Below are positions 4,777-62,860 of a DNA stretch of 64,000 nt, in pieces. The notes beneath the pieces were generated by a model. It was not told the origin of the DNA. It saw only the letters and a list, made by a program, of their open reading frames with translations, and did not search any database. The position numbers and the translations under genes are program-made. Location: NCBI RefSeq assembly GCF_056746865.1, contig NZ_CM163382.1. One strand, 5' to 3'. The first letter of the stretch is position 1; the number at the start of each line of letters is the position of its first letter.

Positions 4777-4848
4777 TTTTTCCTCATAAATTTGATGCCA
4801 GGTGAGGCTATGTTTGTTGTGTTCGTTGCCGGAACCGAAAACAGCCAT

Positions 4849-9237: not shown

Positions 9238-9340
<103 letters not shown>

Positions 9341-25816: not shown

Positions 25817-26155
25817 ATGAGAAAAAAGCTGGCTTTTCTTGATACCAGTCTTGACGATTTACGCGCATTTCCAGAATCGTCTCGACAGGAAATTGGCTAT
25901 CAACTCGACAGGATCCAACAAGGGTTAAACCCATACGACTGGAAACCTTTTTCAACTATCGGCCCTGGTGTGCGAGAGATTCGTACTCGCGATGCTGATG
26001 GGATCTATCGCGTCATGTATGTCGCAAAATTTGAAGAAGCGGTTTACGTATTGCATTGTTTTCAAAAGAAAACACAGACTACCAGTCAATCGGATATTGA
26101 TTTAGCCAAACGACGCTATAAAGAACTTGTTCAGGAGCGGAAAAATGAAAATTGA
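25817..26155 (+). CDS. type II toxin, RelE/ParE superfamily, HigB / phage Gp49-like (112 aa)
   Basis: ORF track 112 aa; small basic protein with C-terminal block VYVLHCFQKKTQTTSQSDIDLAKRRY typical of HigB/Gp49-like toxins; toxin-first order with an overlapping downstream HTH gene. Confidence 0.75.
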   Translation: MRKKLAFLDTSLDDLRAFPESSRQEIGYQLDRIQQGLNPYDWKPFSTIGPGVREIRTRDADGIYRVMYVAKFEEAVYVLHCFQKKTQTTSQSDIDLAKRRYKELVQERKNEN

Positions 26156-26435
26156 AACCTTTGATAGTGTGTGGGATGCGGTGAGTGACACCCCTGAACA
26201 AGCGGAAAATATGCGGATCCGTGCCGAACTTGTTACGATCATTAATAACTGGATTGAACAACAAGGGTTTAGCCAGGCTCAGGCAGCGTCTGCTTTAGGG
26301 GTCACTCAACCTCGCATATCTGAACTTGCCAGAGGTAAAATCCAGATCTTTAGTATCGATAAATTGATCACCATGATGGCTCATGCAGGGTTGCATATTC
26401 AACGTATTGAAGTTCAATATCCACATGCTGCTTAG
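26145..26435 (+). CDS. HTH XRE-family antitoxin (HigA-like, 96 aa)
   Basis: ORF track frame 26127..26435; start placed at ATG 26145 (MKIETFDSVW...), overlapping the toxin stop by 11 nt (ATGAAAATTGA); helix-turn-helix region QAQAASALGVTQPRISELARGK. Confidence 0.75.
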   Translation: MKIETFDSVWDAVSDTPEQAENMRIRAELVTIINNWIEQQGFSQAQAASALGVTQPRISELARGKIQIFSIDKLITMMAHAGLHIQRIEVQYPHAA

Positions 26436-39796: not shown

Positions 39797-39976
39797 AAGA
39801 AATCCTTTCTTAGAGAATTATTGAGGTCCGGTATCATACCGATTGCAATAATGAAATAAGAGCAAACGAAGAAACTTTCAGAATTAGGCCCGGCGGCGCA
39901 GAAAATTTTGCTATTCGCCTCGCAAGAACGGAGAGCCGTCGATTGACACTAAGGGCGGAGTGACATAATTTCAGGA

Positions 39977-40120
39977 GTGAGGGTTAGGGAGAGGTTTCCC
40001 CCTCCCCCTGGTGTTCTTAGTAAGCCTGGAAGCTAATCACTAAGAGTATCACCAGTATGATGACGTGCTTCATCATAACCCTTTCCTTATTAAAAGCCCT
40101 CTTCTCCGGGAGAGGGTTTC
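39977..40120 (+). ncRNA. sibA: Sib-family antisense sRNA (antitoxin of ibs copy 1); ends approximate
   Basis: Plus-strand TTGACA (39943-39948) with downstream -10-like cataat; GC hairpin gccctcttctccgggagagggt + T-run at ~40096-40120; fully covers the ibs ORF on the opposite strand. Confidence 0.5.
40017..40076 (-). CDS. ibsA: type I toxin Ibs family, 19 aa: MMKHVIILVILLVISFQAY
   Basis: Reverse complement of 40017-40076 translated by hand; hydrophobic Ibs-type peptide; too short for the ORF track. Confidence 0.8.
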   Translation of the reverse strand: MMKHVIILVILLVISFQAY

Positions 40121-40312
40121 CCGTTTCAGCGTCCCGCTGAAATCGTCGGCTTACCTCCTTTCGCCCTGAATGCAGTCTATCGCTAACGCGTGAACAAAAT
40201 AGTTTCCTCTGTGATTATTGCGTAACGACTCGCAAAGAATATTTGCTGGCAGGATCGCAGACTGCAAAGCCTGCAGATTGACAATCTTATCGTGAAGGCA
40301 TACTTTCAGGAG

Positions 40313-40446
40313 TGAGGGTAGAGCGGGGTTTCCCCCGCCCTGGTAGTCTTAGTATGCTGGGTAGCTAATCACTAAGAGCACCACGATGATGAGTATCTTC
40401 ATCATGACCCTTTCCTTATTTAAGGCCCCTTCCTCGGGAGGGGCTT
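40313..40446 (+). ncRNA. Sib-family antisense sRNA (copy 2); ends approximate
   Basis: TTGACA at 40278-40283, 17-nt spacer, -10-like tacttt; terminator hairpin ggccccttcctcgggaggggc + ttt at 40423-40446. Confidence 0.5.
40348..40404 (-). CDS. type I toxin Ibs family, 18 aa: MMKILIIVVLLVISYPAY
   Basis: Hand translation of reverse complement; IbsB-like. Confidence 0.75.
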
Positions 40447-40640
40447 TCCCGTTTCAGCGTCCCGCTAAAATCGTCGGCTTACCTCCTTTCGCCCTGAATG
40501 CAGTCTATCGCTAACGCGTGAACAAAATAGTTTCCTCTGTGATTATTGCGTAACGACTCGCAAAGAATATTTGCTGGCAGGATCGCAGACTGCAAAGCCT
40601 GCAGATTGACAATCTTATCGTGAAGGCATACTTTCAGGAG

Positions 40641-40775
40641 TGAGGGTAGAGCGGGGGTTCCCCCGCCCTGGTAGTCTTAGTAAGCCGGGAAGCTTATGAC
40701 TAAGAGCACCACGATGATGATCCACTTCATCATGACCCTTTCCTTATTTAAGGCCCCTTCCTCGGGAGGGGCTTT
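40641..40775 (+). ncRNA. Sib-family antisense sRNA (copy 3); ends approximate
   Basis: Same promoter and terminator architecture as copy 2 (TTGACA 40606-40611; hairpin ~40752-40775). Confidence 0.5.
40677..40733 (-). CDS. type I toxin Ibs family, 18 aa: MMKWIIIVVLLVISFPAY
   Basis: Hand translation of reverse complement; IbsB-like. Confidence 0.75.
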   Translation of the reverse strand: MMKWIIIVVLLVISFPAY

Positions 40776-40968
40776 CCCGTTTCAGCGTCCCGCTGAAATC
40801 ATCGGCTTACCTCCTTTCGCCCTGAATGCAGTCTATCGCTGACTTGCGGATAAAATAGTTTCACATGTGATTATTGTGTAACGTCTCGCAAAGAATATTT
40901 GCTGGCAGGATCGCAGACTGCAAAGCCTGCAGATTGACAATCTTATCGTGAAGGCATACTTTCAGGAG

Positions 40969-41103
40969 TGAGGGTAGAGCGGGGTTTCCCCCGCCCTGGT
41001 AGTCTTAGTATGCTGGGTAGCTAATCACTAAGAGCACCACGATGATGAGTAGCTTCATCATGACCCTTTCCTTATTTAAGGCCCCTTCCTCGGGAGGGGC
41101 TTT
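40969..41103 (+). ncRNA. Sib-family antisense sRNA (copy 4); ends approximate
   Basis: Same architecture (TTGACA 40934-40939; hairpin ~41080-41103). Confidence 0.5.
41005..41061 (-). CDS. type I toxin Ibs family, 18 aa: MMKLLIIVVLLVISYPAY
   Basis: Hand translation of reverse complement; IbsB-like. Confidence 0.75.
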   Translation of the reverse strand: MMKLLIIVVLLVISYPAY

Positions 41104-54343: not shown

Positions 54344-54479
54344 TTAATTTCGATTATTTTTCCCGGATGGAAAATTCTTAGAAACCGATCACATACAGCT
54401 GCATTTATTAAGGTTATCATCCGTTTCGCTGAAAAACATAACCCATAAAATGCTAGCTGTACCAGGAACCACCTCCTTA

Positions 54480-54514
54480 GCCTGTGTAATCTCCCTTACA
54501 CGGGCTTATTTTTT
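54480..54514 (+). terminator. rho-independent terminator-like hairpin downstream of yegQ (gcctgtgtaa-tctccc-ttacacgggc + ttattttttat)
   Basis: 10-bp stem (one G-U) followed by T-run, read directly. Confidence 0.5.
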
Positions 54515-54671
54515 ATGCATAAGCCGTATCCTGGTCACCGTCTTCCATTGACCACATCGATAGAATCCCCCTTCATAACACGATGCCTTTCACGTAACGG
54601 CATCGTGCTCGTACAGATTCCGGCTACGCACAACCAGAACGCGCATGTTTGACGCTTACCAAAAAATATTC

Positions 54672-55403: not shown

Positions 55404-56303
55404 ATGGCAGAATTTCCCGCCAGCTTACTGATTCTTAATGGCAAAAGTACTGACAATTTACCATTGCGCGAAGCAATTATGCTGTTGCGTGAGGAAGGAA
55501 TGACGATCCATGTGCGGGTCACCTGGGAGAAAGGCGATGCCGCACGATATGTAGAGGAGGCCCGGAAGTTGGGCGTCGCAACGGTGATTGCCGGTGGTGG
55601 CGATGGCACCATTAATGAAGTTTCTACGGCGTTGATTCAGTGTGAGGGGGATGACATACCCGCGCTAGGAATTTTGCCATTAGGAACCGCCAATGATTTT
55701 GCCACCAGTGTAAGGATTCCTGAGGCACTGGATAAGGCGCTGAAACTGGCAATTGCCGGTGACGCCATTGCGATAGATATGGCGCAGGTCAACAAACAAA
55801 CCTGTTTTATTAATATGGCGACAGGCGGATTTGGGACGCGTATTACCACAGAAACGCCGGAAAAATTAAAAGCCGCGCTGGGTGGCGTCTCTTACATCAT
55901 TCATGGCTTAATGCGCATGGATACTCTGCAACCGGACCGTTGTGAGATCCGCGGTGAAAACTTTCACTGGCAAGGTGACGCCCTGGTCATTGGTATTGGT
56001 AACGGGCGTCAGGCCGGTGGCGGTCAGCAATTGTGCCCGAACGCGTTAATTAACGATGGCTTGCTGCAACTGCGCATTTTTACCGGCGATGAAATTCTTC
56101 CGGCTCTCGTATCAACATTAAAATCTGACGAAGATAACCCGAATATTATCGAAGGCGCTTCGTCGTGGTTTGATATACAAGCCCCACACGAAATCACTTT
56201 TAATCTTGATGGCGAACCGTTGAGCGGACAAAACTTTCATATTGAAATACTTCCGGCGGCGTTGCGTTGTCGATTACCACCAGATTGCCCATTGTTGCGT
56301 TAA
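55404..56303 (+). CDS. yegS: lipid kinase YegS (diacylglycerol-kinase catalytic family, 299 aa)
   Basis: ORF track 299 aa; DAGK-type motif ([13 protein letters not shown]). Confidence 0.9.
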
Positions 56304-56340
56304 TCACACTATTCTCTCTTGAACCAGGGAGAATCCGTAA

Positions 56341-56371
56341 TGCCGGATGCGGTATAAACACCTTATCCGGC
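56341..56371. repeat. REP element (tgccggatgcggtataaacaccttatccggc) in the yegS-gatR convergent gap
   Basis: REP-like palindrome read directly. Confidence 0.45.
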
Positions 56372-56384
56372 ATACAGAACAATA

Positions 56385-57164
56385 CTACACCGTAATTAAT
56401 TTTACCCGTGTCTTCTGCAATGCCAGTTTATCCACCTCTGACACGGCATCATCGGTAATAATAATGTCAATTTTTTCGATTGGGAGTACCTGATTAAAAC
56501 CGCGACGGTTAAATTTCGATGAATCGAGAACGGCAATCACTTTATTAGCGGCTGTGACCATCGCCCCGCTAATCGAATAACCTTCATTAAAGGTCGTAAT
56601 ACCATTAACCGCATCAATACCATCAGCACCGACAAACATTAAATCGGCATTAATATCCTGCAATGAACGCTCGGCAATGGAACCATGCATCGAGCGCGTT
56701 TTATGGCGGACGGTGCCACCACAGACGACCAGAGTAATGTCTTTATTTTCGGAAAGGGCAAACGCCGCCGGGAGACTGTTGGTAATCACCGTGATATTTT
56801 TGGCGGTCATTAAACCTTCGGCGATAAGCATTGTCGTACTTCCGCTGTCGAGAATAACGGTCATCCCTTCGTGGATCATTTTGACTGCCGCTTGCGCTAT
56901 TCTGTTTTTTGGCGCACTGGCGAGCTGAAATCGCTCTTTAAACCCAACTTCCTGGGTCTCGGTTTCACTATTACCGGACATTATTTTCGCCGCACCGCCA
57001 TGAAAGCGCGTAACCACGCCTTTTTGTTCGAGAAAGCGCAAATCGGCACGGATTGTCGCTTCCGAGGCAGCAAATACTCCCGCCAGATCCTGAACAAGCA
57101 CGGTTCCCTGTTCATTCACTAATTGGATGATCTTATTCCTTCGCTCGAATGAATTCATCGTCAT
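56385..57164 (-). CDS. gatR: DeoR-family galactitol operon repressor GatR, intact (259 codons)
   Basis: ORF track 259 aa; N-terminal HTH (RRNKIIQLVNEQGTVLVQDLAGVF) + DeoR sugar-binding domain; downstream of gatD. Confidence 0.88.
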   Translation of the reverse strand: MTMNSFERRNKIIQLVNEQGTVLVQDLAGVFAASEATIRADLRFLEQKGVVTRFHGGAAKIMSGNSETETQEVGFKERFQLASAPKNRIAQAAVKMIHEGMTVILDSGSTTMLIAEGLMTAKNITVITNSLPAAFALSENKDITLVVCGGTVRHKTRSMHGSIAERSLQDINADLMFVGADGIDAVNGITTFNEGYSISGAMVTAANKVIAVLDSSKFNRRGFNQVLPIEKIDIIITDDAVSEVDKLALQKTRVKLITV

Positions 57165-57263
57165 TTACCCATATTCAATTGTGGCTAGTGTAAACGAAGG
57201 GGGACCATTGGTGAATGATCTGTTTTGCACAATACCGGGCCAGCATCACGCTGGCCCGCGGTT

Positions 57264-58304
57264 TCAGGGAATAAGCAACACTTTGCCCGGCATAGCATTA
57301 CGAGCGATGTCACGCACCGCCTGGGCGAAGCTTTCAAAGCTTCCACGGTGAGCGATTAATGGCTCCAGGCTTAACTTACGTTCTGTCAGCAACCGGCTCG
57401 CCGTTTCCCACTCCTGCCCCGGCCAAGGGCTGGAGTAGTTCATCCAACTGCCGATAACCGTCAGCTCTTTACGCAATATTTTGCCAAACGTTGCCGATAT
57501 TAAATGCAGATCCTGATGCAACGTGCCCACCAGCGCCAGTTGGGCATGAGGACCGGCAATCTCTACCGCCAGTTCGACAGTTTGCGGTACGCCAGCCGTC
57601 TCGAGGATAAGCTGATTAAAGCGCAGCTCGCGTAAAACGCCCTGCATTTGCGGCGCGCTCATTTCAAGGCTGTTAAATGTTTGCATCGCACCGAAAGATT
57701 TTGCCAGTGCCAGTTTTTCTGAGCTAATGTCGATAGCCGTCACACTCTTTGCTCCCAGCGCGACAGCGCACTGAATAGCCAGCAGGCCAATGGTTCCGGC
57801 ACCAATAATAATAACGTTTTTATTCTCACAACCTTGCGCTAAATGAAAAGCATGCAGGCCAACGGTAATCGGTTCAATAAAAGCCCCATCCTCAATAGGC
57901 ATATCCGTGGGTAGAGCAAAGACATTTTTTCGCTTAACGACAATATATTCAGCAAATCCACCATCACGCCGTGAGCCAATAAAATCATATTTTGCGCACT
58001 GGGAATAAAACCCTTTCAAACACTCTGGACAAGTAAAACAGGGTAATAACGGCACACAGGCAACCGCATCGCCAGGGTGTAAATCATCAACACCGGATCC
58101 CACCGCATCAATATAGCCGCTAAATTCATGGCCTAACGTTATTGGATAATAATGTGCACCATTTTTAAATATCCTGGGTAAATCGGAACCACATAAGCCC
58201 GAGCTGGCAATTTTTACCCGTACCTCATCCTGATGTTTAATTTCAGGAATGACGCTTTCTGCAACGCGCACGATACCATCAGTATCATTCACCACTGATT
58301 TCAT
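57264..58304 (-). CDS. gatD: galactitol-1-phosphate 5-dehydrogenase GatD (Zn-dependent MDR, 346 aa)
   Basis: ORF track 346 aa; Zn-ADH motifs (GHEFSG, Cys cluster CFTCPEC). Confidence 0.93.
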   Translation of the reverse strand: MKSVVNDTDGIVRVAESVIPEIKHQDEVRVKIASSGLCGSDLPRIFKNGAHYYPITLGHEFSGYIDAVGSGVDDLHPGDAVACVPLLPCFTCPECLKGFYSQCAKYDFIGSRRDGGFAEYIVVKRKNVFALPTDMPIEDGAFIEPITVGLHAFHLAQGCENKNVIIIGAGTIGLLAIQCAVALGAKSVTAIDISSEKLALAKSFGAMQTFNSLEMSAPQMQGVLRELRFNQLILETAGVPQTVELAVEIAGPHAQLALVGTLHQDLHLISATFGKILRKELTVIGSWMNYSSPWPGQEWETASRLLTERKLSLEPLIAHRGSFESFAQAVRDIARNAMPGKVLLIP

Positions 58305-58351
58305 AAAAACTCCTGATTGTTAAGGGGGATAAACTCCCCCTCAGGTAAAAA

Positions 58352-59707
58352 TTATTCTGCGAGAACGGCTTTCTCTTGTTTAATAAAACCACACGCTCTA
58401 CGCCAGGTCATGAAAATACCGGTAAGATAAATGGCACCGATAATAATGAAACCGGGAATATTTTGCGGGGAGAAAACCTGAATCAGTAACCAGGTAATGG
58501 GAGAACCGCCCTGATCCATTGAAGCCACCATACCCCCGGCTTTTAACGCCCCAGCATTAGCCGCCAGTTGGGTGTGCAAACCAATAGTTTGCGTCGCGAT
58601 CCACAGGGTGATGCTCATAATGATGACACCCGAGATTAAGGTGCGGAACAGATTTCCACGATGCACCGCGACCGCCATCGCCACGAAGAAGCCGATGGTG
58701 GCAAGATCGCCAAACGGCAACACCTGATTACCCGGCACACAAACAGCAATTAAAATGGTGAGAGGGATAAAAATCAGGCTTGCCGATACCACCGCCGTAT
58801 GCCCCAGCAGCAACGCCGGATCAAGGCCAATCAGGAACTCCTGACCGCCGAACTTCGCCTGTAAACGACTACGGGCCTGCTTAGCGATGGGCGTTAAACC
58901 ATCCATGATAGGTTTAATCACCCGTGGCATCAGCAGCATAACTGCCGCCGTTTTTACCGCCAGCTGCAATACACCTTTGACATCGTAACCCGCGAGGATG
59001 CCGATAATCAGCCCCATCACAAAACCCACGGTGACAGGCTCGCCAAACGGACCAAATTTGCGCTGAATATCGTCGGCGCTAAATTTAATACGGTTAACGC
59101 CTGGGATTTTCTCGATGATAGCATCCACCAGCACCGCAATTGGCCCCAGATACGCCGACGTACCGTGCGGAATAGCAATGCCTTCCAGCTCAAAGAAATT
59201 TCGGGTATCGCGGGCAAACCAGTCGCCGAGCTTATAAACAAACGCCGCGTGAATTACCACACCCGCCATCCCTATCATCCATGAACCGGTTGCCAGATGC
59301 AGCAACGCGCCGGTGAAGGTCATATGCCAGATATTCCAGATATCAACATTTACCACCCGCGTCATACGGGTCAGTAGCATCGCCACGTTAACCAGAATCG
59401 CAATCGGAATCGCCACTAGCGCAATTTGCGACGCCCAGGTCATTGGTGAAGAGCCCGGCCAACCGACATCGACCACATGCAGATTCAGGTCAAAATTTTC
59501 CGCCATCGCTTTCGCCGCCGGACCAATGGAATCCAGCATTAAGCCAATCACAAGGCCAATGCCAACAAAGCCAATCCCGATATGCAGACCCGCTTTAAAG
59601 CAATCGCCTGCCTTCATGCCTAATATTTTAGAAAAAATAATGATGACAATCGGCAGCATCACCGTAGGGCCGAGGTCGAGAATATAACGCATGACTTCTG
59701 AAAACAT
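58352..59707 (-). CDS. gatC: PTS galactitol-specific EIIC GatC (451 aa)
   Basis: ORF track 451 aa; polytopic membrane protein; synteny. Confidence 0.93.
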   Translation of the reverse strand: MFSEVMRYILDLGPTVMLPIVIIIFSKILGMKAGDCFKAGLHIGIGFVGIGLVIGLMLDSIGPAAKAMAENFDLNLHVVDVGWPGSSPMTWASQIALVAIPIAILVNVAMLLTRMTRVVNVDIWNIWHMTFTGALLHLATGSWMIGMAGVVIHAAFVYKLGDWFARDTRNFFELEGIAIPHGTSAYLGPIAVLVDAIIEKIPGVNRIKFSADDIQRKFGPFGEPVTVGFVMGLIIGILAGYDVKGVLQLAVKTAAVMLLMPRVIKPIMDGLTPIAKQARSRLQAKFGGQEFLIGLDPALLLGHTAVVSASLIFIPLTILIAVCVPGNQVLPFGDLATIGFFVAMAVAVHRGNLFRTLISGVIIMSITLWIATQTIGLHTQLAANAGALKAGGMVASMDQGGSPITWLLIQVFSPQNIPGFIIIGAIYLTGIFMTWRRACGFIKQEKAVLAE

Positions 59708-59710
59708 AGG

Positions 59711-59995
59711 TCACCCCTGTAAGATAGTCAGAATTTTATTTTGTAATGCTTCGATACCGACACCAGAAACAAAAGGCATGCCGTGAACTAACGGAATATC
59801 GCCAAAACTACGGTCAACTTTGGCGGTAGTACATATCAAATGCACGCCATCCATATAGGTCTCTATTTCATTAACCCGACACTGGATTAATTCAACAGGA
59901 ATATTATGACTCTGACACAACTCTTTAATTTCTTCCGCCGCCATCGTAGAGGTCGCAACCGCGCCTCCGCAAGCGACAATAATCTTGCGTTTCAT
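59711..59995 (-). CDS. gatB: PTS galactitol-specific EIIB GatB (94 aa)
   Basis: ORF track 94 aa beginning [16 protein letters not shown] (active-site Cys). Confidence 0.93.
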
Positions 59996-60025
59996 AAATA
60001 GTCCTTTTTATTGTTACAGAGGGAT

Positions 60026-60478
60026 TTATTCGTCTGAATCTAAAACATACTTTGTGAAGTATTCCTTTAACTGAGTTTCAGGAAGAGTAATTAGTGTCTC
60101 GACGATCTCGGGCTGTTGTAACTTGCCAAATAAACAGCGTAAAAGTTTCAATTGCTGCTGCGGATTTTCCACAATCAACGCAATAACCAACGATACCGCC
60201 ACGTCATTATCATCATCCGCTTGCTGAAAATGAACTTTATTTGTTGGCCTTAACAGATAAATGGCTGACGACTTAGCATGAATCGCCTCACAATGCGGTA
60301 TTGCAATGGCGTGCTGCTCAAGCATTATCCCGGTAGGGAATTCTGCTTCTCTGGCAATTAATGCCTGTGGCCAGGTATCATGAACCACACCTTTCGCGAG
60401 CATCTCATTACCGATATGGGTTAAAACTTCGCTACGATCGACAAAAGAAATTCCGCTACGAACAAACAGGTTAGTCAT
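60026..60478 (-). CDS. gatA: PTS galactitol-specific EIIA GatA (150 aa)
   Basis: ORF track 150 aa; synteny. Confidence 0.93.
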   Translation of the reverse strand: MTNLFVRSGISFVDRSEVLTHIGNEMLAKGVVHDTWPQALIAREAEFPTGIMLEQHAIAIPHCEAIHAKSSAIYLLRPTNKVHFQQADDDNDVAVSLVIALIVENPQQQLKLLRCLFGKLQQPEIVETLITLPETQLKEYFTKYVLDSDE

Positions 60479-60487
60479 ATACCGTCC

Positions 60488-62687
<2,200 letters not shown>

Positions 62688-62860
62688 TCAAATGTCGAGA
62701 TAATGATCACAAAAACGACAATTCGAAAATTAATCAGAATGACAGGCAAAAAAACGGCCTCCCGATAGGGAAGCCGTAGCAAAGTGCGCGTGTTTTTATG
62801 CCGGATGCGACGTAAACGCCTTTTCCGTCATACGTGGTAGTGCTGTTCGTATAAGGCGTA

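Follow-up and report, generated by a model that had tools for sequence, protein, structure and literature searches.

gatR is intact and encodes a DeoR-family repressor

gatR, the DeoR-family repressor gene of the galactitol (gat) operon, is intact in the 64,000-nt stretch of DNA analysed here (contig NZ_CM163382.1 of RefSeq assembly GCF_056746865.1; hereafter the window), where it occupies positions 56385..57164 on the minus strand. It is very probably a wild-type, functional gene, under which the operon would be both repressible and inducible. The observation of an uninterrupted gatR in this window is correct, ordinary and already known.

The gene was identified from the ORF list of the window, from Pfam and from a 100% identical annotated record. 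In the ORF list, the frame runs from an ATG at 57164 through 259 codons with no internal stop. The initial annotation had described a continuous 259-codon DeoR-type ORF, and we recovered it at the same coordinates together with two Pfam domains: HTH_DeoR (PF08220) at residues 8-60 (E=1.3e-16, 60.5 bits against a cut-off of 21) and DeoRC (PF00455) at residues 85-238 (E=2.5e-51, 174.2 bits against a cut-off of 31.8). These domain matches exclude a chance ORF, and the frame is a genuine gene. GatR has both parts of a DeoR/GlpR repressor, namely the N-terminal HTH and the C-terminal DeoRC domain for sugar-phosphate sensing and oligomerisation. PGAP places the start at the second in-frame ATG (57158), two codons later, which gives a protein of 257 aa (WP_001295426.1); the choice between M1 and M3 has no effect on the conclusion. 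The exact protein is present on at least 1000 public contigs in each of its forms, 259 aa and 257 aa, and some public sources list it as "DeoR family galactitol utilization operon repressor". No GatR-specific equivalog was found in NCBIfam, and the PGAP label is therefore only "DeoR/GlpR family DNA-binding transcription regulator".

Orthology to gatR is indicated by sequence identity and by the gene order yegS / gatR / gatD-C-B-A-Z-Y / fbaB. As the initial annotation had it, gatR lies downstream of gatD; the two genes are on the same strand and 99 nt apart. On its other side, gatR converges with yegS (55404..56303, plus strand), whose product NCBIfam assigns to lipid kinase YegS with 491 bits. 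The spacer between the convergent genes (56304..56384) contains a putative REP-like palindrome, GCCGGATGCGGTATAAACACCTTATCCGGC.

AgaR, the DeoR-family repressor for N-acetylgalactosamine/galactosamine, is the best NCBIfam match to GatR (residues 3-259), and the two share a two-domain architecture. Both control PTS operons of the tagatose-bisphosphate pathway. We rejected an assignment of GatR as AgaR itself (NF040755), since the score of 232.9 bits is below the equivalog cut-off of 260 and the gene lies beside gat rather than aga genes; the two are paralogues. DeoR, the deoxyribose repressor, has the same family architecture but is a distant relative (84 bits against an equivalog cut-off of 244) with a different regulon and effector. 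Its structure, PDB 7l6l, is the only solved structure that the GatR sequence matched; the match covers residues 85-256, in the sensor domain at the C-terminus (E=1.9e-11).

The products of the gat operon are the galactitol PTS transporter, galactitol-1-phosphate dehydrogenase and tagatose-bisphosphate aldolase. All six structural genes lie on the minus strand of the window (57264..62633): gatD (57264-58304; ORF list, NCBIfam galactitol-1-phosphate 5-dehydrogenase, 725 bits), gatC (58352-59707; ORF, NCBIfam equivalog EIIC-GAT), gatB (59711-59995), gatA (60026-60478), gatZ (60488-61750) and gatY (61779-62633), the last four identified as ORFs that are annotated in the identical record. Each of the six is full length without internal stops, and the proteins differ from those of K-12 by 1-7 substitutions.

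The split gatR of MG1655 is the exception

The initial annotation had stated that gatR of K-12 is split by an IS element. Indeed, an IS3-family transposase separates the two gatR fragments annotated in the MG1655 record. When we aligned the window's gatR to the K-12 fragments and the IS, a comparison that the initial annotation had proposed, we obtained two blocks with a 3-bp overlap, separated in MG1655 by a 1258-bp IS3 with the termini TGATC...GATCA and a 3-bp target duplication, GTC. The corresponding empty target site is the GTC at 56860..56862, in codon 101 of gatR, and the window sequence is unbroken across it; the window does not carry the MG1655-type gatR::IS3 allele. Removal of the IS and of one GTC copy from K-12 gatR in silico yields a product identical to GatR of the window in 259 of 259 residues. 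The two genes differ at 13 nucleotides, all of them synonymous. The K-12 lesion is a clean insertion of recent date, and the gene is conserved in all other respects.

E. coli HS resembles the reconstructed K-12 gene in these respects. In both strains the protein is 100% identical to that of the window, and the place between gatD and yegS, the orientation and the 99-nt spacer are alike. Both differ from the window by 13 synonymous changes in gatR, by a gatY promoter haplotype that differs at about 14 positions, and by a 78-nt REP-like block that the window lacks.

The statement that gat expression is constitutive in K-12 also agrees with the literature. In passages on the subject, several papers attribute the constitutivity of MG1655 to the insertion in gatR (PMC5850726, PMC10878103, PMC4072538), each citing Nobelmann & Lengeler 1996. 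The element is specified as IS3E in a preprint (bioRxiv 10.64898/2026.01.05.697630). One sentence in PMC5850726 names the MG1655 insertion "IS1"; by sequence it is the 1258-bp IS3, as in the other papers. The K-12 exception has been known since 1996 and has since been used in many evolution studies. The constitutive gat expression of MG1655 is an artefact of the laboratory lineage, which drives rapid loss of gat in evolution experiments in the mouse gut (PMC5850726).

We then took a census of gatR states in 5,426 complete E. coli genomes. The 1201-bp gatR region was found in one piece, at a coverage of at least 80%, in 4,756 genomes (about 88%); a further 354 gave partial matches only, and 316 gave none. 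This count registers large insertions and deletions and is blind to frameshifts, nonsense mutations and any IS element below about 1.1 kb in length, the last because the two flanking pieces are joined into one match. A 120-bp probe over the K-12 gatR::IS3 junction matched in full in 345 of the 5426 genomes, and those listed were all K-12 laboratory derivatives, e.g., ER1709, CV601gfp O16:H48 and Origami2. Large disruptions of gatR of other kinds therefore remain for about 9 genomes, which is a rough lower bound. Intact gatR is therefore the wild-type norm, and the split copy of MG1655 the exception. Where the gat loci of the window and K-12 differ, it is K-12 that departs from the norm. The locus in the window is the ancestral, regulated one, a finding whose importance beyond correct annotation is very small, although the status of gatR helps to predict how a strain behaves in gut colonisation or galactitol-utilisation assays.

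The gat operon is predicted to be repressible and inducible

The GatR proteins of E. coli HS and of the window are identical in a direct comparison (259/259), and HS shares the accession WP_001295426.1 with the record to which the window is 100% identical. When the HS allele replaced the pseudogene of MG1655, regulated gat expression was restored, and in mice new IS insertions in gatR again gave rise to constitutive mutants (PMC5850726). In the K-12 strain NCM3722, in which gatR is intact, gat expression is lower than in MG1655 (PMC3045373).

Selection on the gene is strong and purifying. We compared seven strains that span much of the species (the window, K-12, HS, F11, 23AR1217, O157 AR-0430 and MS8320), and GatR of the six others differs from that of the window by 0-1 amino acids, against 13-26 nucleotide changes.

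Since GatR is identical to the HS protein, gatYZABCD is intact and the conserved blocks upstream of gatY are present, we infer that gat expression in the window strain is repressible and inducible, as the initial annotation had proposed; this reading is well supported. Mechanistically, the N-terminal winged-helix domain of GatR would bind operators at the gatY promoter and keep gatYZABCD off, and the DeoRC domain would bind an effector formed when galactitol is present, whereupon repression would be released. Precedent in the family points to a phosphorylated intermediate of the pathway as the probable effector. With an uninterrupted gatR, the operon of the window should respond in this way. 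In MG1655, IS3 in codon 101 destroys the repressor and leaves expression constitutive.

The repressor is active in other wild strains: in LF82 and CFT073, CRISPRi silencing of gatR strongly affected fitness in the mouse gut, and the authors suggest that de-repression in the gut may fail in wild strains with an intact gatR (bioRxiv 10.64898/2026.01.05.697630). On this suggestion, "inducible" may in practice mean tightly repressed. Alternatively, GatR might be active and the operon locked off in this lineage, so that it is naturally non-inducible or weakly inducible and the strain behaves as Gat-negative or cryptic. We regard this as very unlikely. Galactitol consumption does vary among natural human isolates (PMC5850726), and the 1-7 substitutions per gat protein relative to K-12 may have effects of their own. 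However, all seven gat genes are full length and under purifying selection, unlike what is expected of a permanently silent operon, and the HS allele, which encodes the identical repressor, gave regulated galactitol use in MG1655.

The regulatory region upstream of gatY

We delimited the gatY regulatory region as 62634..62747 (minus strand) by a promoter scan and by conservation among the seven strains. The scan gave a promoter-like pair consisting of a -35 element, TCGACA (62698-62693), and a -10 element, CATTAT (62674-62669), on the minus strand. A CRP-like site on the same strand, TGTGATCATTATCTCGACA (62693-62711; TGTGA-N6-TCTCG), was recognised by eye against the consensus TGTGA-N6-TCACA and overlaps the -35 element. 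Its spacer contains an A in the window where the six other strains have a G. Inverted GTCGTTT motifs flank the promoter, and they suggest two candidate half-sites of a GatR operator on the minus strand, TTGTCGTTTTTG (62710-62721) and GTAAACGACAGG (62642-62653), which are inverted relative to each other. The candidate operator motif may resemble the AgaR operator consensus.

A motif common to the gatY promoter and the region upstream of gatR, TCGTTTAC, was picked post hoc and has five matches in the window against 1.6 expected, a count reached by 5 of 100 shuffles. This enrichment is marginal; neither TCGTTTAC nor TKTCGTTTW is convincingly over-represented in the window, and both are at most suggestive of an operator.

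The promoter, CRP-like and motif blocks are conserved across the seven strains, and all of them are present in the window. The region also varies, which bears on a second alternative: gatR could be intact and gat expression nevertheless constitutive or leaky, if operator or promoter variants of this upstream haplotype escaped GatR. About 14 of about 120 positions differ from K-12 and HS, and the candidate downstream half-site has two changes (GTAAACGACAGG vs ACAAACGACAGG). The haplotype is also uncommon: a megablast search with the gatY upstream sequence found 180 of the 5426 genomes at an identity of at least 99%, most others at 90-95%, and about 1,400 without a match. Even so, such an escape would be highly improbable. 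Among the seven strains, 18% of the upstream sites segregate, compared with 19% of the 4-fold sites in the gat genes; the region varies at the neutral rate, and therefore nothing suggests that it is broken. Furthermore, the window retains the blocks that the seven strains conserve, and since gatR is under purifying selection in these genomes, its product should still have a target. We thus retain regulated, inducible expression as the preferred reading. An altered set-point of gatY is conceivable, although the upstream variation matches the neutral rate. The idea of a hypervariable gatY promoter under diversifying selection was dropped on the same comparison (P=0.67).

Among the seven strains, only K-12, HS and O157 carry the 78-nt REP-like block, which follows the stop codon of fbaB and precedes the adjacent terminator of that gene; the window (62790-62820, in the gatY-fbaB intergenic region), F11, 23AR1217 and MS8320 lack it. 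Situated upstream of the gatY promoter, it probably has no regulatory effect.

A conserved stretch directly upstream of gatR

The 99-nt spacer between gatD and gatR is identical in the window, K-12 and HS. Just after the gatD stop codon, the minimum-free-energy fold places a GC-rich hairpin with a 9-bp stem, CCGCGGGCCAGCGTGATGCTGGCCCGG (57235..57261, minus strand). A scan for intrinsic terminators did not call this hairpin, and a clear T-run after the stem is absent, so that read-through from gatD into gatR may be attenuated rather than blocked altogether.

The remaining 70 nt directly upstream of gatR (57165..57234, minus strand) stood out in the seven-strain alignment. None of the 70 sites segregates in the seven strains, compared with 19% of the 4-fold sites in the gat genes (P about 3e-7), and an 82-nt query across the stretch was 100% identical in 4345 of 5103 genomes (85%). 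We infer a promoter of gatR itself in this stretch, perhaps together with an autoregulatory site. A weak candidate promoter on the minus strand within it consists of a -35 element, TTCACC, a 17-nt spacer and a -10 element, TACACT; a possible autoregulatory site is CTTCGTTTACAC (57188-57199, minus strand). A consensus promoter scan of 57165-57234 called no promoter at its threshold. It is conceivable, if rather unlikely, that the 70 nt go beyond a plain promoter and include an as yet uncharacterised operator for autoregulation or an RNA leader by which GatR dosage is set. Were this true, such an element would fix the repression set-point of an operon that is strongly selected in the gut.

The window belongs to a non-K-12 lineage

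The initial annotation had used the intact gatR, together with an extra toxin-antitoxin (TA) islet and a missing P2 remnant, as an argument that the window derives from a non-K-12 lineage. That origin is settled by nucleotide divergence: in colinear blocks the window is 96-98% identical to MG1655, and over its last 25 kb it matches at least 12 non-K-12 genomes at 100% identity. These complete genomes come from humans, poultry and raw-milk cheese (e.g., CFSAN061770). The lineage claim therefore stands; its use of gatR fares less well. An intact gatR says little about lineage, since about 88% of the genomes have this wild-type state and the gene is also reported to be intact in the K-12 strains NCM3722 (PMC3045373) and LS5218 (PMC5699524).

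The other two differences were both found. A two-gene type II TA islet between yegH and asmA, which K-12 lacks, is probably the extra islet that had been meant. It consists of a RelE/ParE-family toxin of 112 aa (25817-26155) and an HTH antitoxin of 102 aa (26127-26435), both on the plus strand, and is full length (25817-26435) in 792 of the 5426 complete E. coli genomes. The 604-bp P2 remnant of K-12 is absent from the window. In K-12 it comprises ogrK and a fragment of the late-control gene D, sits at the 3' end of the sRNA gene CyaR (RyeE) and has a flanking repeat of about 26 nt; in the window the CyaR gene lies at 54426-54511, and the stretch 54426-54522 has the empty site.

Further differences from K-12 were observed elsewhere in the window. 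Between yegL and mdtA there are four tandem type I TA repeats of the Sib RNA (Rfam RF00113) / Ibs kind, about 330 bp each (39943-41076, plus strand); in K-12 and HS, just two ibs genes are annotated there. The colanic-acid (wca) cluster shows small indels or replacements: K-12 is about 195 bp longer between wcaK and wzxC (window 4824-4831), and in the vicinity of cpsG-cpsB about 75 bp of the window (9251-9327) are unmatched in K-12.
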